Positions 40,245-63,025 of a stretch of DNA of 64,000 nt are shown piece after piece. The stretch is from contig JAUVHV010000001.1 in assembly GCA_030593065.1 (NCBI GenBank), positions 145,965-209,964 on the forward strand, in the 5' to 3' direction. This stretch comes from Candidatus Omnitrophota bacterium (GTDB taxonomy: Bacteria > Omnitrophota > Gorgyraeia > JABMRG01). Below the pieces are notes generated by a model, which saw only the letters and a program-made list of their open reading frames with translations, had not been told where the DNA came from and did no database searches. Numbering within the stretch: position 1 is the first letter of the stretch; the number at the start of each line of letters is the position of its first letter. A program made the translations under genes and the position numbers.

Positions 40245-40256
40245 AGATTATATCTT

Positions 40257-40838: not shown

Positions 40839-40887
40839 TCCTAGATACTGCACCCAGCATCTAGTATCCAAGATAGGAGTATTAGTT

Positions 40888-42099: not shown

Positions 42100-42114
42100 G
42101 ATGCTGGAGAAGTA

Positions 42115-42510
42115 ATGGCGAGAGGCAGTAATGAAAAAGCAAGGTCGCTGGTTGAACTCATAATAACGTGGATTGCGATATTTATAATTATAGGGTTTCT
42201 TATCACGCGGGCAAGCATTCTTTTGACAAGCGCAAAAAAAGCAATACTTACAAATGAATTGAGCAACATAAGGCTTGCCGTCTCTTTGTACCATATATTG
42301 CATAAAACCTACCCAGATAATATTGAGATGCTTATAGACAAGACCTATAAGATACATGCACGCAAGGGGCGTGTATTAAAAGGCACATTTCTTAACCGCC
42401 TAAAACACGATAAGCAGGGAAGGCTAAAAGACCCTTTTGGCAATATTTATCTTTACAATCCGCAGACAGGTATGGTAAAATCGCAAACAGATAGTTATAA
42501 AGATTTGTAA
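42115..42510 (+). CDS. Pilin-like / pseudopilin-like small protein (non-canonical leader)
   Basis: SLVELIITWIAIFIIIGF hydrophobic N-terminus resembling a prepilin helix but lacking the G-F cleavage motif. Confidence 0.3.
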   Translation: MARGSNEKARSLVELIITWIAIFIIIGFLITRASILLTSAKKAILTNELSNIRLAVSLYHILHKTYPDNIEMLIDKTYKIHARKGRVLKGTFLNRLKHDKQGRLKDPFGNIYLYNPQTGMVKSQTDSYKDL

Positions 42511-42526
42511 AAGGAGGGGCATTATT

Positions 42527-42940
42527 ATGAGGGAAAAAGGTTTTACATTAATTGAGCTTGTTATGGTTATTGTGATCCTTGGTATTCTCGCAGCAGTGGC
42601 TCTACCGAAATTTATCGACTTAACCAGTAACGCTAAGATTGCCGCTACAAAAGGAGGCCTTGGAGCTGTTCGTTCTTCAGTTGCGATAAAATACGCGAAT
42701 CGTGTCGCGAATGATAGCGGAACGGATTTCCCTACTTTGACCCTTACAGATTTCTTAGGCGCAAAGTATCCTAGAAATGAATTGAATGACAAAACAGATA
42801 TAACATTTGTTTCTACCCCAGTTGCAGGTACAAACACAACAAGTATTACTTACGGTTGGTGGTATATTACAGGTTCAGGTACAGAGGCAGGCCGGTGCGG
42901 CGCGTATTCCGATGGTACAGAGGATGTATCTGAGTGGTAA
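42527..42940 (+). CDS. Type IV major pilin (PilA/GspG-like)
   Basis: MREKGFTLIELVMVIVILGILAAVALP canonical prepilin leader and N-methyl-Phe site. 137 aa. Confidence 0.75.
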   Translation: MREKGFTLIELVMVIVILGILAAVALPKFIDLTSNAKIAATKGGLGAVRSSVAIKYANRVANDSGTDFPTLTLTDFLGAKYPRNELNDKTDITFVSTPVAGTNTTSITYGWWYITGSGTEAGRCGAYSDGTEDVSEW

Positions 42941-43012
42941 TAACCGAATAGAGTGTCTCTTACATCAATATTAGGGGAATGACAAATATGTCATTCCCCT
43001 TTTTTAAATATT

Positions 43013-45391: not shown

Positions 45392-45458
45392 AGCAGATTT
45401 TATGGCCTATTATGTGTATGGCATGCCGGTACTGAAAGGTATAAATTAATATTCTATT

Positions 45459-47108
45459 ATGGAAAACATATTTTACGTTATAAGCAGATTATGTTCTAAG
45501 TTTGCTCCTCTGCCATTATCTCTCGGTATAGAGATAAGCTCCAACTCTATCAAGACAGCATTGGTAAAACAGGATTCCCACGGCTCAGCTTCTCTTATAG
45601 ATTACGAAATAACGCAGGTAAACAATAAAGATAATGCCCCAATCATATTTAAAGAGATATTAAAGTCTAAAGGTATCTCATCATCAGTTAATGTAAAGTT
45701 TGTCGTCTCGGGAGCTGATGTGGATTCCAAAAGGGCAAAACTTTCCTCCATGCCGGAAGAGGAGATAGCCGCGGCGTTAAGATGGCAGGCTAAAGAACAT
45801 TTTCTCTTTAACATAGATGAGTCTATGCTTGATTTTGAAGTGCTGAGATTAGCAGAGAAACAGGATGGTTCAGGCGGAGTTGAGGTTATAGCCAATATAG
45901 CAAAGAATGAAATCATAGATAGCAGAATATCACTATTAAAAAATACAGGTATTGTCCCCTCTGTTATCATACCTGTTGCTTATGGTTTGCGTAATATTTA
46001 CAATATCTCAAATATGCAGGACGGAGATAATCCGGTAGCAATTATAGATATAGGTGCTGATACAACTACTATTGTAATAATAAAAGATAAGAATATAAGG
46101 TTTATAAGGCAGATAAGCTGTGCCGGAGGTGACTGCACAAAGGCTATGTCCGGCGCATTTGTTTCGGGTAAAGGAAGAATAGAACTTTCTCCTGAGAAAG
46201 CTGAAGCATTTAAAAAAGAATTTGGAATTCCAAATTGTTCTGAAGGAGAGCTTAAGGACGGGGTATCTGCCGCACAAATTGCTTCTATGCTGAGGCCTGT
46301 GCTTGAGAAGCTTGGTAACAATATAAGGCGTTCATTCGATTACTATATAAGCCAGTTTCAAGAAGAAAATATATCAAAAATATACATAAGCGGCGGAACG
46401 TCCAGCATGAAGAATATAGAATCTCAACTCTTTAAGATGTTATCTGTGCCTGTTGAGAAACTTAATGTTCCAAAGAGCATAAAACTAAAAATTCCAAAAG
46501 AAAAGGTTAAAAACCTTAATGATGATTTTGCGTTTATAGCGCCTGCTATTGGAGCTGCTTTGCACAATATTGAAGGATTAAATCTTATTCCTTTAATATA
46601 TAAAAAAGATAAAATAAGGAAGATCGAGAAGATTTCCGCAAGGCTGGCGTTTATATTTATTGTAATGCTGTTATCCGTATTTTATCTTTTTAATCTTGGC
46701 CATGAAGGGGTATTAGTGAAGATATTAAATGCACAGCGCCCACAATGGCAGAAGCTACAGGAAGTGCGGGAGCTTCACGCGCGGATAACTCAGAAGAATG
46801 CAATAATGAACCAAACGCTAAAGAGGCAAATACCTTTATATTATCTATTTAAAGCGTTGGCTAACGCAATACCAAGAGAGATTTATCTGCGCGATCTTAG
46901 CATAGAAGAGCAAGCTACCAGTATGAGCATGGAAGGGATTGTCGTGGAGACAAGCGAGCTAGCAGAGATTACATTGTCAAAATTCATAAAGTCTTTGGAA
47001 GATTCTATATTTTTTCACGATGTTTTATTAGGTTCAACCCAGGATGTGGAGATATCAGGCAGACAGGCGTTAGAGTTTAAGATAAGCTGTGGATTGGGAA
47101 GAGGTTAG
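45459..47108 (+). CDS. PilM-PilN fusion (type IV pilus assembly)
   Basis: N-terminal actin-like PilM (LGIEISSNSIKTALVK). At about aa 370, LNLIPLIYKKDK (PilN INLLP-like) is followed by a TM helix. Confidence 0.6.
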   Translation: MENIFYVISRLCSKFAPLPLSLGIEISSNSIKTALVKQDSHGSASLIDYEITQVNNKDNAPIIFKEILKSKGISSSVNVKFVVSGADVDSKRAKLSSMPEEEIAAALRWQAKEHFLFNIDESMLDFEVLRLAEKQDGSGGVEVIANIAKNEIIDSRISLLKNTGIVPSVIIPVAYGLRNIYNISNMQDGDNPVAIIDIGADTTTIVIIKDKNIRFIRQISCAGGDCTKAMSGAFVSGKGRIELSPEKAEAFKKEFGIPNCSEGELKDGVSAAQIASMLRPVLEKLGNNIRRSFDYYISQFQEENISKIYISGGTSSMKNIESQLFKMLSVPVEKLNVPKSIKLKIPKEKVKNLNDDFAFIAPAIGAALHNIEGLNLIPLIYKKDKIRKIEKISARLAFIFIVMLLSVFYLFNLGHEGVLVKILNAQRPQWQKLQEVRELHARITQKNAIMNQTLKRQIPLYYLFKALANAIPREIYLRDLSIEEQATSMSMEGIVVETSELAEITLSKFIKSLEDSIFFHDVLLGSTQDVEISGRQALEFKISCGLGRG

Positions 47109-47696
47109 ATGAAAAAGGCCGTTATAAAAAACAAGAAGCAATTGTTAAGCATATCCGCAATAGTGTTTGTTGTTTTAATACTTTTTGTATTTGCCTATAT
47201 ACCACAACATCAAAAAGTGAGTAGCCTGAAGAAACAGGTGCAGGATATAGATGAGCAGATAAACCTTACCAAGTCTATACTTGGTGATATGAAGAGATTG
47301 GGGCCTTTTTTAGGCCAGATGCAACAGGAGATGAAGCGTTTTGAGGATAGGCTTCCTACTACGAAAGAGATAGCGTCAGTAGTATCGGAATTATCAAACC
47401 GTTTTAAAAAAGCCTCTTCACTTGAGGTTTTAAGCATAAGGCTGCAGAAACCTTTGCCTGTTTTAGATAACGATTACAAGCCTGTCTATATGGATGGAAA
47501 GCCACTTAATAAAATAGAGATAGAGCTTAAGTTTCGGGCTACTTATGAGGACTTAGCAGAGTATATCAGAAAGGTGCAGGATAGCCCAAAGACACTTGCA
47601 AGCATAGACAGTATAAAGATAAGTAAAGACGACAGCATAACTCCAAGCTTAGGTATTGTGGCTTTATTTACTATCTATGTAATCGATAGGGGTTGA
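47109..47696 (+). CDS. PilO-like pilus assembly protein
   Basis: N-terminal TM, coiled coil, then ferredoxin-like domain. Position after pilMN. Confidence 0.4.
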   Translation: MKKAVIKNKKQLLSISAIVFVVLILFVFAYIPQHQKVSSLKKQVQDIDEQINLTKSILGDMKRLGPFLGQMQQEMKRFEDRLPTTKEIASVVSELSNRFKKASSLEVLSIRLQKPLPVLDNDYKPVYMDGKPLNKIEIELKFRATYEDLAEYIRKVQDSPKTLASIDSIKISKDDSITPSLGIVALFTIYVIDRG

Positions 47697-47703
47697 CCTT
47701 AAT

Positions 47704-48207
47704 ATGAATTTTATCGATTTTAAAAATCTTAATACAAAATCAAAAATAGAGATTATAGCCACCTCTTTTATGATAATCGTTTTTATACTGATACTCGCAA
47801 ATAGTTTAAAGACTGTATTTAAGTCAAAGAAGTTGACCAGCGAAAATTTTTATATGTCAACGGATGCGTTTAAGGAGATAATAAAAAGAGATGTTATAAG
47901 CCCAAAAGATACAGGGGTAGTCGGTAACCGGGATATATATAAGGATATAAAAAAGGAAGAAGATCTTAAGCCCTGGGGCAGAGACCCTTTTTCTGAGAAA
48001 ACCGCTTTAAGCGTCGGGAGTATGCCTATATCAAATCTTAAGGTCGAAGGCATCTTTTTCCAGCACGATCAAACTCCACAGGCAATCATAAATGGAGAGG
48101 TCTTAGAAGAAGGTGATAAAATAGGGGATATTACTATAATAGAAATAAATAAAGATACAGTCATAGTAACTGATGGAGAGAAGAATTATAACTTGCATCT
48201 ATGGTGA
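47704..48207 (+). CDS. Hypothetical membrane-anchored protein (PilP-like position)
   Basis: Single TM. Last gene of the pilMNO-like run. Confidence 0.25.
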   Translation: MNFIDFKNLNTKSKIEIIATSFMIIVFILILANSLKTVFKSKKLTSENFYMSTDAFKEIIKRDVISPKDTGVVGNRDIYKDIKKEEDLKPWGRDPFSEKTALSVGSMPISNLKVEGIFFQHDQTPQAIINGEVLEEGDKIGDITIIEINKDTVIVTDGEKNYNLHLW

Positions 48208-48273
48208 GACTAAGATATATCAGATGATTGTATAATAAAATGACCCGGATTATCACCCCTTTTATTTATATGG

Positions 48274-48349
48274 GGCCCCATCGTCTAGTGGCCTAGGACG
48301 CCAGATTCTCATTCTGGTAACACGGGTTCGACTCCCGTTGGGGTCACCA
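48274..48349 (+). tRNA. tRNA-Glu (anticodon CUC)
   Basis: Acceptor GGCCCCA/TGGGGTC, TCGTCTAGTGGCCTAGGAC D-arm typical of tRNA-Glu, anticodon stem CCAGA/TCTGG with loop ttCTCat, GGTTCGACTCC T-loop, CCA encoded. Confidence 0.8.
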
Positions 48350-48567
48350 GAGTCGTAAGTAGCTGTAATTCCTATAGTTATAAAACAAGAATCAAAATAT
48401 CCCGATATTACCGGATTAAAAACTTTTTCATAAATTGTTTTTTTAAACCTTGAAAATTTAACAATATGTGTTATAATTATGTTGTAAAAAGTTAATCAGT
48501 AAAACCCCTGGCAAAAATAAGTAGTGGTCTGTTTTTTAATCCTGAACTTGTAGAAGGATTTTTTGCC

Positions 48568-49835
48568 ATGAAAAAACTCGTCATACTTATAATCATTATT
48601 ATTTCCACGTTTAATAGTATCCCTCGATTACACTCGGAACGAGCAAGCCAGGGCGATGCCCTGAGGCCCATGGCTACACGTATATTTCCTGAATATAATC
48701 AAATAATAGAACATATCAAGAGAGACCATCGTTATTGGAAAAGAACCGGCGAATCTGCTTTAGGAGAGGTAAGCCAGTTTAAAGTAAGCGTTAGAGAACA
48801 CCCAGGCAATCCTATACTTATTCCTGATTATAAGAATGAGGTTTTTGTATTAAATCCAGGTGCGATAAGAATAGGGGATACATATTATTTAGCTGTACGG
48901 TCATCAACTCGTGATAAGCTATCAAGGATATTTATTGCAACCAGTAAGGACGGTTACAATTTTCAAAGAAAGCCCGGATTCTTTTATGCGATTCCTGGTA
49001 TAGATTCAAATGGTGGCATCGAAGACTCGAGACTTTTAATTGTAAAAGAGTTTCCTAACAGAGTATTTATGCATTTTACCTATTGCCATGATGGTATATT
49101 TGAAATTGCCGAAAGCTCTATTGCTATGCAGGACTTTATAAATATAAACCCTGCAGGGTGGAGCCCTATGAAAAGGCTCTTTCCCGGAAAGAGGGATAAA
49201 GATTTTGTGCTGATACCGCGAATGTTGAATAATAGATACTATGCCTACCACCGGCCTGAATTTGAAAGCGGACAATTAGTTGGACGAGGCATACATCTAG
49301 CTTATACAGATAACCTTATTGACGGCACATGGGAGGACTTGGGCATGGTAATGGCTCCCAGGAAAGATTACTGGATAGGAGCAGGGGTGGTACTAGAGGC
49401 AGAGAATGCCTGGATTTTGATTTATCATGAAGCGCAACAGCTTGCTGATACGGACAAACGCTATGTATGCAAAATTGCTCTAATAGATAAAGAAAATCCG
49501 GCAAATATTCTTTATGCTCCTGAAGAGCCGATACTTGAAAGCAATCCATCTGAGACAGAGATGCTTAAAAAGACAATAGGGCTTGAGTCTTGGGTCCCCA
49601 ATGTTAAATTTATAAATGGCGCTATAGTATTGGGGAAAGAGAGGCTGTGACTGAAGGAAGTGAAATTGTTCTTTATTATGGTCTTAATGATACGGTTGTA
49701 TCTGCTGCAATATTAAAAATTGAGAAAATGCCGGATATTTCAAATGGAAGAAAGGCAGTGCCTAATAAGCCCTTCTCGGGTATAAATTTCGGCCAAAATA
49801 AAACTGTTTTAATAAATATTGACTCTGCTGCCTAA
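48568..49835 (+). pseudogene. GH130-like (DUF377) glycosidase/phosphorylase, apparent frameshift near 49645
   Basis: ORF 48568-49650 has the GNPIL / beta-propeller signature. The overlapping ORF at 49647 continues with EIVLYYGLNDTV (C-terminal GH130 hallmark VLYYGAADT) in another frame. Confidence 0.4.
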
Positions 49836-49989: not shown

Positions 49990-52900
49990 ATGCTATATTT
50001 AAAATTAATACATAGTAAATTTATTTCAATTATACTATTACTTGCTATTAGTGTTACTACGTCTGCCTATGGCAGTACTAACCCCGCGCTTTTTACCAGA
50101 AAATCCCATGCGCAACGTTACTTAAAAAAATCTGGCAATAAATTGCCCCTCGATTTTACCGGTAAAGACTCATCGTCGGCTATAAACATTCCCCGGAGAT
50201 TAGGGGTTGTGGTGGAGCGTTATAATGGTGAAAGTGGTTATACAGTTATACATATTCAGGACTCCCATATCAACCCTACAGCTCAGTTTAATATAGCAAG
50301 CATAATAGAAGAGATTGCCACAAAATACAACACATCTCTTATGTGCTTAGAAGGTGCTTCTGCAGAACTTGATATATCCTTTTATGATAAGTTTCCTGAT
50401 GATGAAGCAAAGCGCAGAATAGCAGGTTTTTTTGTGGAAAGAAGCCTTTTTACGGGTGCTGAGTTCTATAAAATATTACACAAAGCCCAATATTTGAAAA
50501 CTATAGGCGTAGAAGATAAAAAGGCCTATTTAGAACACCTTTTTTACCATAGAAAAAATCGGCTAAGTAGAGAGGTTGTATTAGGATCTCTTAAGGAGCT
50601 TGAAAGAGGCCTAATCAGTTTAAAGAGTAGAGTATATTCCAAAAGTTTAAAAGACTTAAGCGGAAAAAGCTGTCTTTATCATTTGAAGCAGTTTAAGCTG
50701 CCTGAATATCTTAATATATTAGAGAAATATTCTAAAAAAGCAAAGATAGATATCTCTAGATATGAGAACCTTATTAAAATGCTTGCGCTTATGGAAAAAG
50801 AGAAAGAGCTAGATTTTCAAGCAGCGGCAACGGAAAGAGAAGCACTAGTTCTTTATCTTTCAGAATTACTGCCTGCCAAAAAGCTGAGAGAGCTTTCCGC
50901 AATGAGCCTTAATTTTAAACTCAACAAGAGATCGGACATTGAATTCTATACCTATCTTGAACAATTCCTCAATAGCCAGTTGTTGCAAGTTAAAGATGCA
51001 ATACGCGCTATGCGCTACAACCATCTTATTGCTTACATAGATTATCTTAAATTCTCAAAGTCTATCGATTATCTTATGGTTTATGATGAGGCAGAGCGCT
51101 TAGAAGAGGAGGTTTCAAAAGCACTTTGCACAAATTCAACACAACAGAGGCTTGTTGAATACACCAAAGCTGTAAGTATCCTGCTGGATTTTTACGAGTT
51201 GAAGCTTACCAGCGGCAGGTTAGATTACATGGATAGAAATCAGGATTATTTTGATATTCAAAACATAATACAGTTTTTGAAAGAGGCTTGCAATAAATAT
51301 GGTTTGCCTCTTGAAGATGCTCTCCTTGTATCTATAGACAAGATGTTTATTGAAAACACTAAAAATTTTTACGAGATAGCGCTGAAACGGGATATAGCCA
51401 TTACAGAAAATACACTAAAATCTATGAGATGTCAGCGTAAAGACAGGGCCATACTAATAACAGGGGGGTTCCATACCCGGGGCATAACTAATATCTTAAA
51501 AGAGAAGGGTATATCCTATGTTGTAATATGCCCTAACATCGGCTTAATGGATTCAGAAAGGCTTTATTTAGATAGATTAGCAGGCAGGCTGCAGGATGTT
51601 TCAGAGCTAACAGAGCTTTTTAGCCAGACACTAACAGCCCCTCTTGTTACAGGGGATGCTTCAGTAGCAGAAGTAAGCTTTATCGCGCAAGAAGCATTTA
51701 AAATGTGCTGGAATATTTCAAATAATGCGAAAAAACTCAACACCCCAGCTCATAAAGCTGAAGAGATGGTGCGTCAGATTAACAGCCGTAGCATAAAAAT
51801 ATACCCATATGACAAGAAAAACGACGCCTATATGTTAGATAAAGGGGGAGTGTTAAAAGCAATTTATGATTCTGACTATCCCGTAGTTGTTAGGTTTATG
51901 ATAGAGGGTATTTCTGATTATGTTATTTTAGGTTTTAGGGTGGAAGAAGACGGCATATCTGCTTTGTCTACACACTTTCCTGATGACCTGCAGGGTAAAA
52001 GGTTAAATTCGCAAGTTTTCGAAGCCTTAGGCAATGTGATAGAGAAAGGCGCAATACTTAGGGCAAAGATATCTAATTCTATGACCAGGAAGAGATTGTT
52101 TAGTGCTTTTGAAGTAGTAGCTGGTAGTATAAAAAAGAGAGGGGCGGGGGATAATATTGTCGTTGATGAAAATCTTATTGCGGATGCCTTTTCAAAAACA
52201 CTTATGGGTAATCTATTTGCAAGGGCCGGGTTTAGCAATTTCAAACTTATGCTTAAGAGAAATAATGGTAGCTATATGAGGGGCCTTGAGGCCTTGACCA
52301 ATATTTTACTTGCGAGCAGAGACGGAAAAAAGACAGGAGAATTTTGTCTTGAGGCTGTAAAATTATATAGCAGGCAACCCACCCTTCCTCAGCCCCAGGA
52401 TGGCGAAAAGGCCGAGCCTATAAAATCCTCATCCGCGGGCAAGGAGCAGGCCAAAGAAGATATCACCATGGAACGCTTATCAGAAAAGGAGAGAGAGGCT
52501 ATTGCTGACGTTTCAGATAAGGTCTTGGCAGTATATCCAAAATTTAAGATACATAAAAAGGAGCTTAACTACTTTATAATGCTGATAGGCCCAGGCGACT
52601 TCTCAAAGGCATTTGCTAATAATCTTGTGGCAGTTGTCAATGCCCTCAAGACAGTCTTTAGAAATTGGGATGAAGATAAACTCACTGCTCTCATCAAACA
52701 TGTTACCCAAGATGCCTTTACAAAGGCATTTGCTAATAATCCAGCGGCAGTTGCTCATGCTCTCAGGATAATCTTTGCTGACTGGGATAAATACACCATC
52801 TTTATAACTCACATTAATAAAGATGACTTCTCAAAAGCATTTGCTGATAATCCTATAGCAGTTGCTTATGTCCTCAGGACAATTTTTGCTAATTGGGATA

Positions 52901-55900
52901 AATACATTACCTTCATAGCCAATTTTAATAAAGACGTACTCTCAAAGGTGCTTATTGATAATCCACAGGCAGTTGCTTATGCTTTCAGAATAATCTTTGT
53001 TAATGAGGATGAAGATAAGCTTACTGCTCTCATCAAACATGTTACCCAAGCTGCCTTTACAAAGGCATTTGCTGATAATCCAAGGGCAGTTGCTCATGCT
53101 CTCACGATAATCTTTGCTGACTGGGATAAATACACCATCTTTATAACTCACATTAATAAAGATGACTTCTCAAAAGCATTTGCTGATAATCCACAGGCAT
53201 TTGCTGATATTCTCTTGGCAACCTTTGTTGACTGGGATAAATACATTACTTTCATAACTCATGTTACCCAATCCGCTTTCTCAAAGGCACTTGCTGATAA
53301 TCCTGTGGCGGTTACCAATAGTATCGCGAAAATATTTAATAACTGGGATGAATACAATAAGCTTTATAGCCAATACGGTAGGCAACTAAATATATTGCGC
53401 GATTATGCATCTGAGACGGATCAGCAGGATATAACAGATATCTTTATTATTATAAAGATGTTTGATATATTGAAACTCTTGAAAGACTTACCCAAAGAAG
53501 CAGATAGGAGACTCTTAAGAGAACTTCTTGATAAGAAGGGGTTAGAAGGCCTCTATCTTATCTTAAAGTTCTTCTATGAGTTCAATCCTCTCTTTGCTGA
53601 TAAGCACAAACCATCCTTTATAAGGAACTTCTTAGGTATTAACTTTATTAATCAGGAGTTCGGATTCCGTTACGGCCGTAATTACGCCTATATATCTGCA
53701 GGAGAGAACAGGGAACCTGTATATACAATTACCAAGGTCTTCGGTTCAATCCCTTCAGCCAAAGAAGAGTTTAATGGGCTTAAACTGCTTGAGGAATTTG
53801 GCAAACTTACAAAAATCACACTAAACGAAAAATCTACATCCATAACTTACTCTACAACAGAACCAGGCCTGTTTATCATGCCTACTGAGTTTATGGCTTA
53901 TGCCTCAAAACAAGAGAGAATGAAGATACTCATATCATTATTAAAAGAGTCGTTGCTTCAGATATACTCACTTGCACATAAAGGATACGCTCACACCAGC
54001 TTAACTTCTCTGAGTCATGGCATAAGGGACGATAACACGCCCAATGAGTGGATACCATATAGAGGAGGAGAGATAACCGATGTCCAAGAAGGCTTAAAAC
54101 ACCTTAATTTTCGTCCTGGTATAGGTTTAGTGGATGCGGAACATATATTTTATTCAAGGGAACTGGAACATTTAGACAGCAGCATTCTTAATAAAGATGT
54201 AGCAGGTTCAGTCTTTGAGCTTTTGTTAGGCCTTTGTTACGGAGCTATAGTACAAGGCTTCTCAACAGATGAGATAGTATCCTCGTTTACCTCAATAGAA
54301 TTAGATATAGATGCTTTACCAGGTGAACTTCAGCACAAACAACAGATTTTTAAAGGTTCTGAAAAGCATCTCAGAAGGATAATCAATGATATCATAACTG
54401 ACCATATACCGCATCAGAGAGACACCAACGCTCTTCTTCCATGGCTTGAAGAAAATCTACCCGGCCTTCTTACTGTAACAGCCAGCGAAAATAGGGTTAT
54501 CCTGCCGGAACTTATTAATGTGTTGGATTATGCCCTTACAAAATCCTCATCCGCGGGCAAGGAAAAGGTCAAAGAAGAGATTATCATAGAAGGCTTATTG
54601 GAAAAGGAGAGAGCCCAGAGGATTTCAGGGCTTTTAGGTGAATTAGCCTCTATAAATAGCATGCAGGAGGTACTGCCGCTTAAATGGATGGAGACAATAT
54701 CTTCCTTTGATATTATTGAGTTTTTTAAAAATATTAGGGGTATAGAATTAGAGGCAGAAAACCTGCTAATGGCAAAACTTTTATGGCATATTGTATGCCA
54801 CACACTCGGGATAGAAGGCAGGCCGCTCAAGCCATTTTATGAGTTGGTGATACTGGATATAAGTGAAGAGAGCATAGCAGGACATTCTGCTGAATTTTCT
54901 TACTATTTAAGGCTTATGATTGAAGAAAAAATGGAAAAAGAGATAAAAGTTGAGATTGAGAAAATGCTTAAAGAAAAAAAGGTGAAAAAAAGAGAAAGCT
55001 TGATAGAAGAGTGGGATAAGGCTGTCGATGGTTTATTAGAAGAATATATTAATAACATAACTCTGCTTTTGAAAGATATAGAGGTTGAATTTAAGAGACA
55101 GGATTTATTTAAAGGGATCGAAGGAGCAATGGAACATTTTAGAGAGCGCTTTAACTATGTTTCAATAAAGCATTCTTCCGCGGGCAGAGAAACAAGGGGT
55201 AAGAAAAATAAACCTGTTGCTGATTTTACGCTAAGAATAACAAAAGAGATGATTCAGGCGGTTATGGATGGCAGTGAGTTTAGAAGCGCAAAAAACGGGA
55301 AGGATTATGAAATTAAGGCTGCTGTGGAAGAAGACTGGCTTGTTATATGGGTAAAAGAGGGTGGACAGCCCGACGAACTTAATAGAGACGAACATTCTTA
55401 TATCGAACTCGACTTAAAATTCACGGAAAATAAAAATAAAACCGAGATCCTTATTGACAGGGAAAGCATTAAAGAACCGGACAGCGGTATATTGACCAAT
55501 ATCCTGGATTATATTATTCCTTATTTTAATGAAATTACTTATGTTTCAACCAACCAATGCCCGCAGATAATAGCCGGAGCTGAAAGGACAATCGAGAATA
55601 TATTGAGAAGATCCGGCAGGGGATTTAAAACTGTTCAAAATAATTTTGGCGGGGTTTTTTATATCAACAAGCCGAAACCATTTAATCCGCATCTTAAGAA
55701 AAGCGAAAAAGAGCACCTCTCCGCCATAAAGCTTTCTTCCGCGGGAGAAGGTGGGGTTGCCCACGATGTCCATAAAGACGGCTCTCTTTCAATGGATAGG
55801 AGACAATTTTTGAAACAGTTGGTGGGAATCCCGGCCTTCTTAACTGTGCTTGGAACCAATAAGAGAGAGGCCTCAGCGCAGGGAAATATATTTGAAGATC

Positions 55901-58851
55901 CCCGCGATTTAATTCTTGATTTTGGCCAAGCGATAGACAGCACTGTTCTTGAAAAATATATTTCTGTGATTAAGGAACAAGGGCTTTTAGAGTTTAGCAG
56001 TGTTATTCAAAACGATTCTGATACAATGATTATTGTAAAGCTGGGGGAAAATAAGGTTGATGCCGAGGTAGTTGCCGGGAGGCTAAACAAGGCGCTATCA
56101 GGCAAAATTAGTTTTGCTAAAAAGTTTAAGTGTGTAAAGAGCAGCATTATATGGGAAGAGACTAAGACCTATAAAGAGATAGAGAATTTTGTGAATAGAG
56201 TTGCCCGTATTTCAGACTCATTGGGTATGGGTAGGGTGAATAGGGATAATCTCAGAACTTTGCTGGAAGGAGTTACCTATGTAGAGAGTAAGTACCTTCA
56301 TTGGGAGCGCAGATTTGGCAAGATTAAACCAATAGAGTCATATACAGGCGCGATAGGCGCGACTCAGCTTGTAAAAAGTAAAGCCGTAAAACATATTGCT
56401 GAACTCGTATTTAAGCATAAGGATGGCCTGATAAAATACAGTAGTATTATCTCAGAGCTGAAAAGAGTTTTGGAAGAAAAGAATCCAGAGGAGAATTATC
56501 TGTCCGCTTATTTTGAAGCAGGAGATGACACCGTTCTGCAAAGATACGCCGTAGAGAAATTAAGGAGAAAGATACTTGCTAACCCTTTATTAAAAGGGGT
56601 TAATCTATATTACGCGCTTTCATTATGGTTAATACTGGTTGAAAACAAAAAAATTTCCACTACGTTAAAAATAGATAGAAAGATAATAGAGCAGATAGCC
56701 AATATAGCGCAATCCGACAGCAATGTCATCTCAGGAAAGGGCGCTTATAAACCTAAGAATTTACATGAAGCAGAATGCCGATGCGGGCAGGATCTTTTAA
56801 GGGCAGAGGTTATTTTCAGGATGCTGGGCGAGGAGGTTATCAAAGATATTGCCATAAAGCATAAAACCAACAGCAAAAGATTTGAGGTGTTATTTAACTA
56901 TATGAAGGTAAAGGTATTCAATGATAAATCATATAACCAGAAGGTTGGATATGTATATCTTTTCTATTTGTGGGACAGGGCCCGCAGGCTGCAGTTAAAA
57001 AAAAGAGAGCAAGGTTATGCTTTTACAGAAGAACTGCCTGAGTATTTTGAATTTAATTCTCGTAGTTTTGATGAGAGATTAGCGGCTGCTGCTGCTTATA
57101 ACTCAGGCTGGAGCACAGTTAGCAAGGCGTTAAAGGGTTTTGGCGCAGAGAAAGATAAAGATACAATCCCCCGCTGGATTAAGAATATGATAGGGCCAAA
57201 CCGCCGAAATCCCAGAGAACCGATTAACTATCTGCGGACATATTTAGAATATATACTCCACTACAAGAGTGTTTTAGTTGATAAGGATTACAATTTAATG
57301 TGCGCTTTAATTGAAGAACGTTATAATCGTTTGCGATATGTGGCCACTAAGAAAGGGCCACGCCTTATTGAATATAGTAAAATCATAACTTCAGACGGGC
57401 AAAAACGATATACTGAATCAGAAAGAAGCAAGGATGATTTATTTAATTATAAGCTGGCTTCTTTACTAGCATCATTGCTCGGCAGCGATTATGTGGATAG
57501 CTATATTATCAGTTGGGGGATGCCAGGCTGGGAAGATAATATTTTAAGCTCTACAGCGCCAACCTTTAAATGGCTGGCAAAACGCATGTATAATGAAGAG
57601 AGTGTTTATCGTGAAAAAGGAGAGCAGGTATTGAATTATTTCAGGGATAACAAAAAGCAATATGGTAAATCTTTAGCAGCGTTAGAAAATTCAATAAGTG
57701 CCCTGACAAAGCACAAAGAGCCGTGGATAGTTTTGCAGAAAAAGATTAAAGCAGAAGCTAAAAGACAAAAAATCAGGGGGTATCTGGTTTGGGGCTTCAA
57801 GTACGCGACGCCAGTTTTTTTGGCAGGGCTTATTCCCGCGGCGCTTGGGTACATAATTTACAGGCGTCTCAAGCGTGAAAAAGCTTCTAAAGTGGGAGAA
57901 GCCGTAAAGACGCCTAAGCCGAAAAAAAGACAGGTTATATACAAACCTCCGGCTTTATATAAAAGCAAGACAACAGGAAAAGTGTATCTTGGAAAAGCTT
58001 TTGTTTCAGACAAAGAACAGAAATACACTGTTGAGAAAAGTGAAAAAAAGCACCCTCCCATTATGAAGTCTTCTTCTAGCGGTGAAAACAGAAACGAAAT
58101 TATAACAGAAATGCCTATTATTAAGCAGGCAAGCATATCTGGCCAGCAGCTTTCCGCGCAGGCCCTGGAATTAGAGAAGTTATGTGTCAGCATGTTTAAT
58201 TTTCCTTATGATCTTCAATTTGGCTATAGCCCATATCGCTATGGGATTATAATTGATGAGGCAGTGTTACGGAATGAAGAAAAGCGGATAATTGAATTTT
58301 TGGCATCTCAGAAAACCTCAACCGGCAAGGCTAAATTTATTATTCTTATTAATACAAAAGATGCAAAAGAGAGTATGATTGATAAATGGGGTTTACTGCA
58401 TGAGAATATATTGAGTGTAGATAAATTTTTTAAGCAGAGAGGTGTTGACCAATCATGGTTAGGTTCAGAACAGGCTAAGGTTATACAAGCGGCAAGACTG
58501 CTTAAGAATAGGATAAGCCAGGGCCAGCCTATAGGAATTATCGCGGGGCCGTCTGTGGACATAGAAAAGATGGCGCATAACATGCAAAGGGAGAATGTAA
58601 AAGGAGTATTTATATCCTCACAACAACCGGCTGCCGCGCAAATAGATATAAGTGAAACTTCGATAATTGCTAATTTTATGTTTGAAGCTCTTTTAGCTGA
58701 TATTCTGCTTAAGCTGAAATCCTATAACCCTGCCAAAAAATACACGATACAGGAACTTATTGAGATTCTTCCGCCAATAATAAGCATAGAATTTATGGAG
58801 AAGATAGAACTTCTTAAAGCCGCGACAGAAGCTATCTCTCAGGCTGCTTAA
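49990..58851 (+). CDS. Giant secreted/membrane-associated multidomain protein (2953 aa), function unknown
   Basis: Sec signal peptide. Tandem ~38-aa repeats (aa ~870-1130). Five K-S-S-A-G linker motifs. Internal Tat-like signal (MDRRQFLK...ASAQ) at aa ~1935. TM helix near aa 2600. Confidence 0.6.
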   Translation: MLYLKLIHSKFISIILLLAISVTTSAYGSTNPALFTRKSHAQRYLKKSGNKLPLDFTGKDSSSAINIPRRLGVVVERYNGESGYTVIHIQDSHINPTAQFNIASIIEEIATKYNTSLMCLEGASAELDISFYDKFPDDEAKRRIAGFFVERSLFTGAEFYKILHKAQYLKTIGVEDKKAYLEHLFYHRKNRLSREVVLGSLKELERGLISLKSRVYSKSLKDLSGKSCLYHLKQFKLPEYLNILEKYSKKAKIDISRYENLIKMLALMEKEKELDFQAAATEREALVLYLSELLPAKKLRELSAMSLNFKLNKRSDIEFYTYLEQFLNSQLLQVKDAIRAMRYNHLIAYIDYLKFSKSIDYLMVYDEAERLEEEVSKALCTNSTQQRLVEYTKAVSILLDFYELKLTSGRLDYMDRNQDYFDIQNIIQFLKEACNKYGLPLEDALLVSIDKMFIENTKNFYEIALKRDIAITENTLKSMRCQRKDRAILITGGFHTRGITNILKEKGISYVVICPNIGLMDSERLYLDRLAGRLQDVSELTELFSQTLTAPLVTGDASVAEVSFIAQEAFKMCWNISNNAKKLNTPAHKAEEMVRQINSRSIKIYPYDKKNDAYMLDKGGVLKAIYDSDYPVVVRFMIEGISDYVILGFRVEEDGISALSTHFPDDLQGKRLNSQVFEALGNVIEKGAILRAKISNSMTRKRLFSAFEVVAGSIKKRGAGDNIVVDENLIADAFSKTLMGNLFARAGFSNFKLMLKRNNGSYMRGLEALTNILLASRDGKKTGEFCLEAVKLYSRQPTLPQPQDGEKAEPIKSSSAGKEQAKEDITMERLSEKEREAIADVSDKVLAVYPKFKIHKKELNYFIMLIGPGDFSKAFANNLVAVVNALKTVFRNWDEDKLTALIKHVTQDAFTKAFANNPAAVAHALRIIFADWDKYTIFITHINKDDFSKAFADNPIAVAYVLRTIFANWDKYITFIANFNKDVLSKVLIDNPQAVAYAFRIIFVNEDEDKLTALIKHVTQAAFTKAFADNPRAVAHALTIIFADWDKYTIFITHINKDDFSKAFADNPQAFADILLATFVDWDKYITFITHVTQSAFSKALADNPVAVTNSIAKIFNNWDEYNKLYSQYGRQLNILRDYASETDQQDITDIFIIIKMFDILKLLKDLPKEADRRLLRELLDKKGLEGLYLILKFFYEFNPLFADKHKPSFIRNFLGINFINQEFGFRYGRNYAYISAGENREPVYTITKVFGSIPSAKEEFNGLKLLEEFGKLTKITLNEKSTSITYSTTEPGLFIMPTEFMAYASKQERMKILISLLKESLLQIYSLAHKGYAHTSLTSLSHGIRDDNTPNEWIPYRGGEITDVQEGLKHLNFRPGIGLVDAEHIFYSRELEHLDSSILNKDVAGSVFELLLGLCYGAIVQGFSTDEIVSSFTSIELDIDALPGELQHKQQIFKGSEKHLRRIINDIITDHIPHQRDTNALLPWLEENLPGLLTVTASENRVILPELINVLDYALTKSSSAGKEKVKEEIIIEGLLEKERAQRISGLLGELASINSMQEVLPLKWMETISSFDIIEFFKNIRGIELEAENLLMAKLLWHIVCHTLGIEGRPLKPFYELVILDISEESIAGHSAEFSYYLRLMIEEKMEKEIKVEIEKMLKEKKVKKRESLIEEWDKAVDGLLEEYINNITLLLKDIEVEFKRQDLFKGIEGAMEHFRERFNYVSIKHSSAGRETRGKKNKPVADFTLRITKEMIQAVMDGSEFRSAKNGKDYEIKAAVEEDWLVIWVKEGGQPDELNRDEHSYIELDLKFTENKNKTEILIDRESIKEPDSGILTNILDYIIPYFNEITYVSTNQCPQIIAGAERTIENILRRSGRGFKTVQNNFGGVFYINKPKPFNPHLKKSEKEHLSAIKLSSAGEGGVAHDVHKDGSLSMDRRQFLKQLVGIPAFLTVLGTNKREASAQGNIFEDPRDLILDFGQAIDSTVLEKYISVIKEQGLLEFSSVIQNDSDTMIIVKLGENKVDAEVVAGRLNKALSGKISFAKKFKCVKSSIIWEETKTYKEIENFVNRVARISDSLGMGRVNRDNLRTLLEGVTYVESKYLHWERRFGKIKPIESYTGAIGATQLVKSKAVKHIAELVFKHKDGLIKYSSIISELKRVLEEKNPEENYLSAYFEAGDDTVLQRYAVEKLRRKILANPLLKGVNLYYALSLWLILVENKKISTTLKIDRKIIEQIANIAQSDSNVISGKGAYKPKNLHEAECRCGQDLLRAEVIFRMLGEEVIKDIAIKHKTNSKRFEVLFNYMKVKVFNDKSYNQKVGYVYLFYLWDRARRLQLKKREQGYAFTEELPEYFEFNSRSFDERLAAAAAYNSGWSTVSKALKGFGAEKDKDTIPRWIKNMIGPNRRNPREPINYLRTYLEYILHYKSVLVDKDYNLMCALIEERYNRLRYVATKKGPRLIEYSKIITSDGQKRYTESERSKDDLFNYKLASLLASLLGSDYVDSYIISWGMPGWEDNILSSTAPTFKWLAKRMYNEESVYREKGEQVLNYFRDNKKQYGKSLAALENSISALTKHKEPWIVLQKKIKAEAKRQKIRGYLVWGFKYATPVFLAGLIPAALGYIIYRRLKREKASKVGEAVKTPKPKKRQVIYKPPALYKSKTTGKVYLGKAFVSDKEQKYTVEKSEKKHPPIMKSSSSGENRNEIITEMPIIKQASISGQQLSAQALELEKLCVSMFNFPYDLQFGYSPYRYGIIIDEAVLRNEEKRIIEFLASQKTSTGKAKFIILINTKDAKESMIDKWGLLHENILSVDKFFKQRGVDQSWLGSEQAKVIQAARLLKNRISQGQPIGIIAGPSVDIEKMAHNMQRENVKGVFISSQQPAAAQIDISETSIIANFMFEALLADILLKLKSYNPAKKYTIQELIEILPPIISIEFMEKIELLKAATEAISQAA
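52596..53380 (+). repeat. Coding tandem repeats (~114-117 nt unit, 7 copies) with a 339-nt higher-order duplication
   Basis: Repeating unit (D/A)FSKAFA(D/N)NP.AVA.ALR.IFA.WDKY(T/I)(I/T)FI.H(I/V)(N/T)(K/Q). 52678-52870 and 53017-53209 are near-identical. Mirrored by duplicated antisense ORFs. Confidence 0.8.
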
Positions 58852-60496: not shown

Positions 60497-63025
60497 ATGA
60501 AAATGATGCGGTGGGCGTTTTTCTTTATTTTTTTCTCTATATCTGCGCTGTTTATATGCAGTTTTGATACGGTTTTAGCACAACCATATGAAACCGTATC
60601 ACCCTATATATTGGCTGATTTACAATATGAGCAATATCCTGGTTTTTCCCGTATCATGGTTGCATCAAATGAAAAGATAGCTTTTGTCTCTTATGAACTC
60701 CAAAACCCTTATAGGATTGTAATAGATCTTATAGGGGTCTCTTTTTGTGAACTACAGGAGTATATTGAATATGAAGAAGGCCTTGTTAAATCGATTGAGA
60801 TAATAGAGACACCTTATGTAAAACGCTTACCAGGCCTTGATGAGTACTTTTACGCAGTAGACTATATAATTATTACGCCACGCTCTAAGCTTTCCTTTAC
60901 TGTATCATCATCAGAGGATGAAAAGGTAATAGTAGTGGATATTGGTGATCAATCAGAAGATAGTGTAGATACAAAACCGGAAGAAGAAGTAAGCCCTGTT
61001 AAAAAGGATCCTATTGGCCAAGAGCTTACAGCAGTGCCAAAGCCTGAATCATCGGTTATAAAAGAGAATATAATCGGTTATATCAATTTTGAAACTTTAG
61101 ATGACGCTTCTTTGATTATCATTATATCCAATAACGAGGTTGTATATAAAATAGAAAGGAACCATTATCCTGATTTTAATATAGTATTAATACCTCAGGA
61201 TCCGGTATTCACGGATCTGGAAGAGTATGCGGAACTTGATACAGGGTATTTGAAATCCGTAAGGATTGTAAAAGATACCATAGCGCCTAAACCAGAATCG
61301 CTTGATAATTATTATTATCCTATAAAATATATAGTAATAGAGCCGAACGTTGACCTGCCTTTTGATTTTTATTCGAATAATGACGGAACCATATCTATTT
61401 TAGAGATATACTACCCTGATATTGATAAAAGAAAAAAAGAGGCCATAGTTGAGAAAAAAGAAGTTGTAGCTGATGTTGATATGGAAAAAGAGGCGGAATT
61501 GTTTGCGCAGGATGTCAGAATGAGCCTGCTTAAACAATTTAAGGAAGAGATAAAGAAAGAAAGCCTGTTGAGTAAAGAAAAAGTTGCGGAGCTTAAAAAA
61601 GAAGAACTTGAAAAGAGGAGAAAAGAGATAAGCAAAAAGGCAGAGACTATTGGCAGAGAGCTCTTAAAAGACCTTATTATTACAGGAAAGGGCATGTTGA
61701 GCCTCAAGAGATCACAGGATATTGCCATTGAGAACAATCTACAGGCTAAGATCTTAAAGGAAGAGGTAAAGCTTACAATGCTGAAAAAGAGGGATGCATT
61801 CAGGTCCCTATTCCCTAATGTGAAGCTCAAGGCATCACATACGGTCGGAGATGTTATGGAAGATATTGCCTTTACTGAAGAACAGTATGGCGTAGAAGGA
61901 GAACAGGTTCTTTATCAGGGCGGCAGGCTAATGAATGCATACAAACAGAGTAAGGTGAATGTCGCTCTTTCAGAAGCCAGGTGCAAGAAGATAGTGAATG
62001 ACCTGAATTTTAAGGTTGCGGAGGCATATTATAATATTGTGACAGCGGTAATGAATATAAGATTGCAGAAAGAGCTTTTTGAACAGGCAGAGGTAATTGT
62101 TGAATTGGCAGATAAGAGGTATGAGGCGGGTTTAAGTACTAATCTTGAGATACTCAATGTAAAATCGCGTTATAACCAGATACAATTTCAGCTTGCTACG
62201 GCAGAAAGGGATTTGGCATTGGCAAGGTTTAAGCTTAAGCAGGTAATAGGCCTTGATATTAGTGAACAGGATATAGATCTTTCCGAAGTCGATACAGAAC
62301 TTCCATTTAAGATTGTTGATATCAATCTGGATGAGTGTTTAAAAGCAGCGTCAAATAATCAGCCTGATATAGTGGTCAATAAGCTGCTCGTTGAATCTAA
62401 TGACTATGGAGAAAAGATTGCCCAGGGAAAAGAAGGGTTTAGTGTAGATTTGACAGGATTTTATGGCAGAGGGGATTCTTATTATGATACAGAACCAAAA
62501 AATTTGGATAATAACTGGAATGTAGGCCTTAAGGTGAGTAAGCCTTTCTGGTTTGCTACACCGTCGTATTCATTTACAAGAGATAAGACCAGCATGAAAG
62601 TCGGAGATACTGACAGAACAGGTTCAACTGTAAATTCAGGCGAAATAGCTATACTTGATAAGAACGCGCTTGCCGTGAGATCAGAGATTAAAGAGGCAAA
62701 GATTAATAAGCAGAAAGCTGAAAATGAATTGATAGAGACAAGGCGGCAGGCAGCTCTGGAGATAAAAGAGGCGTATTATAATTACCAGGAGTCTATTTTG
62801 CAGGTAAAAAACACCCTGGAAAAGGTGCGTTTTCATAAAGAGGCTACAAAGGTTGCAATGGCACAGGCCTCACTAAATGAAGCGCTCCAGTCACAATTAC
62901 TGGAGGCCATGATACAGCTTGTTGATGAAAAGTCAGTTTACATAAAGGCGCTTTCTGATTACAGCCTTGCGATAGTAAAAATTAATAAAGCAATAGGTAT
63001 CAAAGATTATTTTAATATTGATTAA
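60497..63025 (+). CDS. Outer membrane efflux protein (TolC family) fused to N-terminal tandem AMIN-like domains
   Basis: Signal peptide. Two repeated beta-rich modules (NPYRIVIDLIGV / HYPDFNIVLIPQD), a Glu/Lys-rich linker, and a C-terminal ~430 aa with the OEP/TolC double-repeat pattern. Confidence 0.6.
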   Translation: MKMMRWAFFFIFFSISALFICSFDTVLAQPYETVSPYILADLQYEQYPGFSRIMVASNEKIAFVSYELQNPYRIVIDLIGVSFCELQEYIEYEEGLVKSIEIIETPYVKRLPGLDEYFYAVDYIIITPRSKLSFTVSSSEDEKVIVVDIGDQSEDSVDTKPEEEVSPVKKDPIGQELTAVPKPESSVIKENIIGYINFETLDDASLIIIISNNEVVYKIERNHYPDFNIVLIPQDPVFTDLEEYAELDTGYLKSVRIVKDTIAPKPESLDNYYYPIKYIVIEPNVDLPFDFYSNNDGTISILEIYYPDIDKRKKEAIVEKKEVVADVDMEKEAELFAQDVRMSLLKQFKEEIKKESLLSKEKVAELKKEELEKRRKEISKKAETIGRELLKDLIITGKGMLSLKRSQDIAIENNLQAKILKEEVKLTMLKKRDAFRSLFPNVKLKASHTVGDVMEDIAFTEEQYGVEGEQVLYQGGRLMNAYKQSKVNVALSEARCKKIVNDLNFKVAEAYYNIVTAVMNIRLQKELFEQAEVIVELADKRYEAGLSTNLEILNVKSRYNQIQFQLATAERDLALARFKLKQVIGLDISEQDIDLSEVDTELPFKIVDINLDECLKAASNNQPDIVVNKLLVESNDYGEKIAQGKEGFSVDLTGFYGRGDSYYDTEPKNLDNNWNVGLKVSKPFWFATPSYSFTRDKTSMKVGDTDRTGSTVNSGEIAILDKNALAVRSEIKEAKINKQKAENELIETRRQAALEIKEAYYNYQESILQVKNTLEKVRFHKEATKVAMAQASLNEALQSQLLEAMIQLVDEKSVYIKALSDYSLAIVKINKAIGIKDYFNID

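Follow-up and report, generated by a model that had tools for sequence, protein, structure and literature searches.

We describe a segment that resembles a twin-arginine translocation (Tat) signal and is embedded deep within a giant protein of Candidatus Omnitrophota, encoded on a stretch of 64,000 nucleotides (contig JAUVHV010000001.1, positions 145,965 to 209,964 of the forward strand; this whole stretch is hereafter called the window). The segment, MDRRQFLK-QLVGIPAFLTVLGTN-KREASA-Q (residues 1935-1964, nt 55792-55881; full peptide MDRRQFLKQLVGIPAFLTVLGTNKREASAQ), is preceded by 1,934 residues, and in its sequence it displays every hallmark of a Tat signal. Its twin-arginine (RR) motif is kept in register, as [STDG]-R-R-x-F-[FL], in 9 of the 11 members of a protein family whose overall identity is only 30-37%. 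That residues 1935-1964 constitute an internal Tat-type signal, or a signal-anchor, leading an 'in-out-in' membrane cassette formed by the fifth module of the protein is, in our judgement, an evenly balanced proposition.

A twin-arginine segment inside a giant reading frame

The segment lies within a single uninterrupted open reading frame (ORF) of 2,953 codons, encoding a protein of 2,953 residues. Its Met is found exactly 15 residues past the fourth of the SSAG linkers that join the modules of this protein, where the initial annotation had placed a Tat-like peptide. That annotation had also read the motif as S/T-R-R-x-F-L-K; six of the seven positions of D-R-R-Q-F-L-K agree, and the hydrophobic region and the AxA site are present, but an Asp takes the place of the Ser or Thr ahead of the arginines. 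The features concerned are the following, where L012 is the locus of a close relative discussed below.

49990..58851, + strand: giant ORF of six modules, with [IT/M]K-x-SS[AS]G linkers as joints
52429-52440, 54547-54558, 55174-55185, 55735-55746 and 58072-58083: SSAG-type linkers in the window
55735..55746, + strand: fourth SSAG linker (residues 1916-1919), the left edge of module 5 and a module-indel breakpoint relative to L012
55747..55791, + strand: the 15 residues EGGVAHDVHKDGSLS between linker and Met, which would serve as an extended n-region were module 5 freed at the linker
55792..55815, + strand: twin-arginine motif M-D-R-R-Q-F-L-K, with R1937-R1938 at nt 55798-55803
55816..55860, + strand: h-region QLVGIPAFLTVLGTN, of low hydrophobicity, 15 residues without charge
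55861..55881, + strand: c-region KREASA and then Q, with two basic residues ('Sec-avoidance' type) and a signal-peptidase-I-type site, A-S-A before Q
residues 1920-2698: module 5, 779 aa, between linkers 4 and 5
58072..58083, + strand: fifth linker, SSSG (residues 2695-2698), the right edge of module 5
58084..58848, + strand: module 6, the C-terminal domain conserved in SSAG-linked giants, with a Rossmann/HAD-like alpha/beta fold and the ending ..SQAA

The h-region reaches Kyte-Doolittle (KD) maxima of 1.93 over 13 residues and 1.43 over 17 residues, and the predicted signal-peptidase cut falls between A1963 and Q1964. RRxFLK is unique in the six frames of the 64-kb window. Followed by at least 13 uncharged residues and an AxA-like site, it arose in none of 20,000 composition-preserving shuffles of the ORF, and the relaxed form RRxF[LF] appeared in 0.085% of the shuffles; a chance origin of the segment is excluded. 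When peptides of 40 residues were searched in isolation, the recurrent matches were to Tat-signal models (PF10518 in three, TIGR01409 in four and TIGR02811 in three), and an RR-less control peptide matched nothing. With TIGR01409, the homologous peptide of P0006 scored 20.3 bits and passed the cut-off of 16.7 bits, and those of P0005 and P0002 scored 14.5 and 13.2 bits.

Conservation in relatives follows the layout of a signal. The motif reads DRR(Q/G)FLK in the window and P0002, TRRGFF in P0003, SRRNFF in P0004, GRRTFLK in P0005, SRREFFK in P0006, DRRDFL in P0007, SRRAFFK in L006 and SRRTFFK in L007, while the ~60 residues ahead of it are poorly conserved. P0008 and P0009 lack the arginine pair (GS and RS). 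The RR-bearing helices have 13-residue KD maxima of 1.45-1.93 and 17-residue maxima of 1.12-1.88, against 2.24-2.57 and 1.94-2.14 in the two RR-less members; this pairing of RR loss with higher hydrophobicity is the trade-off that would be expected between Tat-type and Sec-type signals. An AxA-like site is present in all nine aligned members, 7-11 residues ahead of the first strand of the next domain and often directly before RD. Five aligned members carry Arg at +1 and four have K or R in the c-region. Basic residues in the c-region, or Arg at +1, are tolerated by Tat and disfavoured by Sec. Moreover, an A-x-(V/F)-L-T helix core is kept across the family.

The position of the motif is conserved as well. 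Nine homologues have a complete N-terminus, and every one of them carries the motif, or in two cases the RR-less equivalent of it, at an internal position, residue ~85-100 (370 in P0003), C-terminal of a conserved hydrophobic N-terminal helix, MNYKKSKFSLIFRIISLVLIQAFLVMDIAWA. As such, the proposal of the initial annotation that the motif marks a former N-terminus is not supported. The same annotation had set a signal against a conserved internal motif, and the homologues indeed display a conserved internal motif; yet the part that is conserved is the signal-like one, namely RRxF, the weak helix and AxA, and it heads a domain that has to be periplasmic.

The possibility that the fusion is an artefact had also been raised, through a missed stop or a frameshift, to which mis-assembly and a fortuitous likeness to Tat signals may be added. 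An exhaustive search of representatives recovered the identical 2,953-aa protein on a 242,868-bp NCBI contig (P0001), and furthermore P0002, a protein of 2,049 aa and 84% identity from an independently assembled JGI metagenome. P0002, whose DNA is locus L012, has the same in-frame fusion and keeps MDRR(G)FLKQLAGIPAFLTVLETGKREASAQ. The two genes align codon for codon, the exceptions being an N-terminal extension of 6 residues in P0002, a gap of 4 residues and two clean indels, 719 and 187 residues long, which keep the frame and both end at SSAG linkers. In both loci ROK and OEP genes lie 3' of the giant gene. The ratio of non-synonymous to synonymous substitution rates (dN/dS) is 0.26 overall, 0.23 in mature module 5, 0.40 over the 30 signal codons and 0.30 in module 6; the 15-residue stretch EGGVAHDVHKDGSLS is poorly conserved, at 0.57 (15 codons). 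Since P0002 keeps both the in-frame junction and the motif, and dN/dS is 0.26, a missed stop or frameshift can be dismissed. With the open 2,953-codon frame, the independent in-frame junction, purifying selection on both sides, the shuffles and the presence of the motif in distant homologues, mis-assembly and chance resemblance are likewise refuted.

The SPOR- and SLT-like cassette and its host protein

The ~780 residues behind the motif share 31-37% identity over ~700 residues with free-standing Omnitrophota proteins that have no SSAG linkers. Module 5 has an ancestry of its own, and to this extent the C-terminal part was once separate, as had been suggested, though a former protein headed by the motif is not supported. 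Seven representatives (P0003-P0009) match residues ~1935-2640, L006 and L007 were added from GTDB genomes, and the named sources of the family are all Candidatus Omnitrophota metagenome-assembled genomes. Homologues were obtained only by the exhaustive search of representatives. Word-indexed searches gave none for module 5 and none for the leader alignment A4, and for the nine-sequence alignment A1 only P0007. A single-sequence scan of genome contigs returned none, a profile scan nine loci, and a metagenome scan only members already known. When the collected Omnitrophota loci were scanned for other N-terminal RR signals, only this SLT-like family was found.

The family has a layout of RR helix, SPOR-like domain, SLT-like domain with a large helical insertion, transmembrane helix and very basic tail. 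In the window, these parts are placed as follows.

55903..56145, + strand: SPOR-like, ferredoxin-like small alpha/beta domain (residues ~1972-2052)
56227..57186, + strand: SLT-type lytic-transglycosylase-like domain, split by a ~165-aa helical insertion
within it, SLT-like motifs: E2099-S2100 (nt 56284-56289); G-A-T-Q, ~2123-2126; N-Q-K-V-G-Y-x-Y-L, 2316-2324; A-Y-N-S-G, 2369-2373
57802..57861, + strand: transmembrane helix YATPVFLAGLIPAALGYIIY (residues 2605-2624), present in all family members
57862..58071, + strand: strongly basic tail, with 22 K/R against 6 D/E in 70 residues, cytoplasmic by the positive-inside rule

Alignment A1 has the invariants V-E-S, S-x-T-x-A-x-G-x-x-Q, N-Q-x-x-G-x-x-Y and A-x-Y-N-x-G (residues E182, S183, G206, Q209, N399, Q400, G403, Y406, A451, Y453, N454 and G456). 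These we take to be the motifs of family 1 lytic transglycosylases (E-S, G-L-M-Q-like, N-x-x-x-G-x-x-Y-L and A-Y-N-x-G). The native sequences match Pfam SLT (PF01464, gathering score 21.3 bits) weakly, in six of nine cases and over the C-terminal part only, with 15.5 bits for the window. When the ~165-aa insertion was spliced out, SLT was matched in all seven constructs, over profile positions 13-116 of 117, and three of the seven exceeded the gathering score (30.6, 25.2 and 23.6 bits; 20.1 against 21.3 for the window construct). An AlphaFold2 model built on A1 reached a pLDDT of 71 and a pTM of 0.66, with an unstructured signal region. A Foldseek search against the PDB gave no match below E = 0.17, and sequence searches of the PDB with protein and profile queries gave no meaningful matches. 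Because of these negative searches, the SLT-like fold assignment, resting on motifs and profiles, is probable and not certain. Pfam and NCBIfam, run on whole modules, had no match above threshold.

Modules 1 and 6 belong to a second Omnitrophota family, comprising P0014, P0017, P0020-23, P0026, P0028 and P0029 (1,900-4,500 aa), which we call SSAG-linked giants; this grouping is defined in the present analysis and is not a published family. Its members begin with a signal-like helix followed by YGYPTLFKSKSHAQRYL, of the pattern (Y)G..P(T/A)LF..KSHAQRYL, have [KT]-x-S-S-[AS]-G joints (up to 11 in one protein, P0029), and end in a conserved ~240-aa domain terminating in ..KAA or ..QAA, usually without an internal transmembrane helix. 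The window ORF shows all three features, the N-terminus, the linkers and the C-terminal domain. Among the SSAG-linked giants, the RR/SLT cassette is found only in P0001 and P0002, precisely between linkers 4 and 5. By its sequence organization, the window gene is a cassette of the SLT-like family inserted linker to linker into an SSAG-linked giant.

Could the segment instead head a separate Tat precursor, made by an internal start at ATG 55792 (a 1,019-aa product beginning MDRRQFLK) or by proteolysis at SSAG (a product beginning EGGVAHDVHKDGSLSMDRR..., with a 17-residue n-region)? The Met is present and kept in the 84%-identical P0002, the motif follows by 15 residues a linker that acts as a discrete module boundary, related giants have as many as 11 such linkers, and cleavage of Omnitrophota giants has been proposed, at points that are not known (10.1101/2023.11.21.568195). 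However, no Shine-Dalgarno sequence lies within 20 nt of ATG 55792, promoter-like sites are at background, and in the other family members the Met is missing from this position except in L007, where it stands two residues before RR; internal initiation, as put forward in the initial annotation, is left without support. Cleavage at SSAG is purely hypothetical. Moreover, the free-standing family has no SSAG linkers and still keeps its RR motif internal, so that an N-terminal position is not needed for the role of the motif. We therefore regard a separate precursor as improbable.

Several further observations concern the family. In the free-standing proteins (L003-L009, P0004-P0009), the N-terminal helix MNYKKSKFSLIFRIISLVLIQAFLVMDIAWA, which ends in AWA, is conserved far beyond what is usual for signal peptides, and their C-terminus reads ..Q[SA][IV]; the SSAG-linked giants end in ..[KQ]AA. 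In the window, the two ends correspond to 49990-50080 and 58830-58848. From these patterns, both protein ends look like recognition tags of a sorting or processing system. P0007, the shortest member (L001, 13112-14944), is encoded between the dnaA-dnaN-gyrBA origin region and genes for Amidase_3 and glutamate racemase, a neighbourhood which, by gene content, is one of peptidoglycan metabolism. Between the window and L012, residues 2601-2698 (window 57802-58071 region) are nearly identical (dN 0.031, dS 0.031, with dS of 0.25-0.48 elsewhere), and in this region, which holds the anchor helix and the basic tail, either a recent gene conversion or constraint at the nucleotide level may have kept dS low.

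Topology and export route

The route that we favour may be sketched as follows. The source of the cassette would be a small family of Omnitrophota cell-wall proteins that are SLT-like and anchored in the membrane. In the giant, the four upstream modules (1,919 aa) would remain cytoplasmic, and the twin-arginine segment would enter the membrane as a loop or hairpin that keeps the RR end inside and brings the AxA end out. Some 640 aa, made up of the SPOR-like and the lytic-transglycosylase-like domain, would pass to the periplasm, until helix 2605-2624 halts transfer; the basic tail would then be back in the cytoplasm, as would module 6. Because the AxA site is conserved, signal peptidase I may cut between A1963 and Q1964, which would divide the giant chain in two at the membrane, although we place such a cut on the unlikely side.

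That the RR helix is a genuine N-in/C-out element of export or anchoring is quite probable. The basic tails, of which P0004 and P0007 have comparable ones, and the cNMP-binding and GGDEF modules that lie further downstream at the C-terminus of P0006, suggest that the C-side of the second helix is cytoplasmic and the SLT-like domain periplasmic. Furthermore, homologues of modules 1 and 6 share a compartment in giants without an internal transmembrane helix, so that membrane crossings by the cassette should be even in number; the RR helix should then span the membrane with its RR end inside. The same geometry is that of a Tat signal inserted as a loop, and of the internal Tat-dependent helices in dual Sec-Tat proteins. 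Judging from its domain type, the SLT-like passenger must be one that requires the periplasm. A scan of the window protein for hydrophobicity found one hydrophobic helix N-terminal of the RR segment (residues 4-27, with the small -3/-1 site SAYG) and no other convincing upstream transmembrane helix. Past the anchor helix, a conserved hydrophobic segment of ~36 residues could form one helix or a hairpin, which leaves the transmembrane parity count ambiguous in the GGDEF/cNMP relatives, and the predicted structure of module 6 is a generic Rossmann/HAD-like fold (Z <=8) that is uninformative on its compartment.

As for the route itself, RRxF[FL]K, the short and weakly hydrophobic helix, and the basic residues of the c-region or directly behind it suggest recognition by Tat, for which we would put the chances a little short of even. 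Several points weigh against it. To our knowledge, Tat signals either stand at the N-terminus or come after Sec-inserted helices that are even in number; the motif, at residue 1935 of 2,953, is not N-terminal, and what precedes it is a single helix resembling a Sec signal, with an AWA end in the free-standing family and SAYG in the window. On the conventional reading of this helix as a Sec signal, the RR end would be periplasmic. Nor do we know of any Tat substrate with hundreds to thousands of cytoplasmic residues both before and after the exported domain. In several family members, the h-region is interrupted by charge or has fewer than 13 uncharged residues. The window peptide scores 12.0 bits with PF10518, below the cut-off of 22.7, and is not matched by TIGR01409 at its cut-off of 16.7 bits. 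Searches for tatA and tatC (tblastn and a TatA signature regular expression) detected neither gene, whether in the window or in the collected Omnitrophota loci, and the literature that we searched holds no statement on Tat in Omnitrophota. Finally, the conserved A-x-V-L-T core hints at a helix that is retained in the membrane and is not a disposable signal.

The sub-threshold scores, the lack of tat genes in these loci and the conserved core would also suit a Sec/YidC signal-anchor, in which an N-in/C-out transmembrane helix is inserted co-translationally by the signal recognition particle (SRP) and SecYEG, SecA moves the 640-aa loop, and RR is a positive-inside determinant or a relic of Tat. 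The topology would be the same, consistent with the basic tails and the parity argument, and two family members do without RR. A positive-inside role, however, needs no R-R-x-F-[FL]-K, a motif that 9 of 11 members have kept as the neighbouring residues drifted. In addition, two features of the RR helices hinder Sec insertion (PMC5449189): their weak hydrophobicity (17-residue KD maxima of 1.12-1.88), and the basic residues found on their trans side, or the Arg at +1. Loss of RR is accompanied by a jump in hydrophobicity. We consider a Sec anchor unlikely, if a serious contender.

If all export were through Sec, helix 4-27 would be a Sec signal, ~2,600 residues would be periplasmic, the RR segment, too weak in hydrophobicity to halt transfer, would be a periplasmic stretch with no targeting role, and helix 2605-2624 would be the sole anchor. 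The N-terminal helices do resemble cleavable Sec signals in their short h-region and small -3/-1 site (SAYG, AWA), the SLT-like domain would be periplasmic here too, and Omnitrophota giants have often been predicted to be largely extracellular (10.1101/2023.11.21.568195; 10.64898/2026.06.07.730766). Such an arrangement leaves the conserved RRxF[FL]K and AxA unexplained. Moreover, the strongly hydrophobic helix of P0008 and P0009 (17-residue KD maxima of 1.94-2.14) would stop transfer and leave their SLT-like domain in the cytoplasm, and in the window protein module 6 would end up opposite modules 1-4, although the homologous modules 1 and 6 share a compartment in giants without an internal transmembrane helix. 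This explanation is thus slightly more improbable still than that of a separate precursor.

A bolder version of the Tat-type reading is a polyprotein-like chain, in which Tat would recognize the internal signal post-translationally and the folded SPOR/SLT-like domain would be exported between cytoplasmic modules, with cleavage between A1963 and Q1964 or at SSAG yielding two products. We regard this as decidedly unlikely, less so than a separate precursor.

Known systems, genomic setting and implications

Tat signals are treated as N-terminal by definition, and the E. coli cell-wall amidases AmiA and AmiC carry classical N-terminal ones. Like such classical signals (TIGR01409/PF10518; AmiA, AmiC), the window segment has an n/h/c layout, RRxFLK, a short h-region rich in Gly and Thr, a basic c-region and AxA, and like AmiA and AmiC it has a passenger predicted to be of the peptidoglycan-hydrolase type. 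Unlike them, it is located at residue 1935 in the window and at ~85-370 in relatives, and the window peptide falls below the cut-offs of the hidden Markov models.

Internal Tat-dependent helices are known from the dual Sec-Tat proteins (the actinobacterial Rieske protein Sco2149, Sco3746 and polyferredoxins), in which they are of low hydrophobicity and trailed by positive charges (Tooke et al. 2017, PMC5449189). The window protein shares with these an internal RR on the cytoplasmic side of a weak helix, positive charges after it, and a globular domain outside. However, dual Sec-Tat proteins have two or four Sec helices upstream, whereas here one signal-like helix is followed by ~60 to 1,900 non-membrane residues. 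In the former, the Tat helix is the last one and the C-terminal passenger binds a cofactor; here the passenger is SLT-like and without any cofactor motif, and is followed by another helix and 330 to ~2,000 further residues. The conserved AxA cleavage site also sets the present family apart from dual Sec-Tat proteins. Of the known systems these two come closest. Yet the segment lacks the N-terminal location of the one, and the even count of helices upstream and the terminal cofactor domain of the other, so that we would describe it as functioning in the manner of an internal Tat signal-anchor, outside both the classical and the dual Sec-Tat class.

A third comparison is with the extended signal peptide region (ESPR), which has the layout n1-h1-n2-h2-c. 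In autotransporters and TpsA proteins, it gives long signal sequences with an N-terminal extension (PMC2805444). By analogy, the family discussed here may have an extra conserved hydrophobic N-terminal segment ahead of the real signal, which need not span the membrane. The ESPR is ~50-60 residues long, Sec-dependent and without RR, whereas here the spacer ranges from at least 60 residues up to whole modules, and there is no sequence relationship between the two.

Giant proteins of 10,000 to 147,000 aa, the 'Archaeovorins' and others, have been described in Omnitrophota (10.1101/2023.11.21.568195; 10.64898/2026.06.07.730766). They have many transmembrane helices and occasional SLT domains, and are encoded near type II or type IV pilus secretion genes. 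The window protein resembles them in its phylum, its multiple modules, its transmembrane helix, its SLT-like domain and its nearness to pilus secretion genes; it differs in its length of 2,953 aa and in belonging to the distinct SSAG-linked family. Neither Tat motifs nor SSAG linkers are mentioned in these two preprints (10.1101/2023.11.21.568195 and 10.64898/2026.06.07.730766), and in the latter, signal-peptide calls on chunks other than the first were downgraded as chunking artefacts; predictors do give internal calls that resemble signal peptides in these giants.

The linkers have features of their own. Their DNA, TCnTCCGCGGG, is kept at the nucleotide level, and linkers 1 and 2 are 86% identical over 77 nt. 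Of the two large indels relative to L012 10001-16150, that of 187 residues is exactly module 4, between linkers 3 and 4, and that of 719 residues spans module 2, at the repeated sequence of linkers 1 and 2. Since the linker DNA is conserved and the indels end at linkers, the sequences suggest recombination at linkers as a route by which modules may be gained and lost. Module 2 contains tandem 111-nt (37-aa) repeats in 4-6 copies of 60-90% identity (window 52600-53360), encoding DFSKAFADNPxAVAxxLRxIFxxWDKY, and the same repeat occurs in P0017. Module 4 (window 55186-55746) is absent from the close relative P0002, and its one distant homologue is residues 390-475 of P0034, a 1,350-aa multi-transmembrane protein with SSSP-type linkers whose N-terminus is protein-kinase-like by eye. 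The SSSP variant of the linker also occurs in P0015 and P0016. The likeness of module 4 to P0034 hints at a possible exchange of modules between linker families.

In the window, a type IV pilus / type II secretion system (T2SS) cluster at 37050-49650 lies immediately upstream of the giant gene, with these genes at the positions given.

37050: PilB
40831: PilC
42115 and 42527: pilin-like ORFs
43013: YfhO
45459: PilM-PilN fusion
47109: PilO
47704: T2SSB-like
48568: unknown 360-aa ORF

At L012, the upstream neighbours are an integrase gene, restriction-modification genes and a GH130 gene; because these differ, the linkage to pilus genes is not conserved. At 60497-63025, the window encodes an 842-aa protein with an N-terminal AMIN domain and a TolC-like OEP outer-membrane channel. 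The AMIN domain is normally found on PilQ secretins and amidases, and the pilus/T2SS cluster upstream of this AMIN-OEP gene appears to be without a canonical secretin gene in the stretch examined.

What, then, would this segment mean for these organisms, members of an uncultivated phylum with giant proteins for which no biogenesis route is known? Module 5 can now be annotated as a putative membrane-anchored, SPOR-like and SLT-like cell-wall enzyme, which fits the cell-wall-attacking lifestyle that has been proposed for Omnitrophota. Its RR signal is canonical in appearance and conserved; all relatives whose N-terminus is complete have it at an internal position, and the window gene is the extreme case. 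If the Tat-type reading is true, a folded domain located midway along a very long chain would be taken across the membrane by Tat or a Tat-like hand-over, and a single giant gene could supply cytoplasmic as well as periplasmic activities. Should the chain in addition behave as a polyprotein, one gene would yield two separate products, a multi-module one in the cytoplasm and a cell-wall enzyme that faces the periplasm, the known scope of Tat would be extended, and the nucleotide-conserved SSAG linkers would be points of exchange or processing of modular proteins in predatory ultra-small bacteria.

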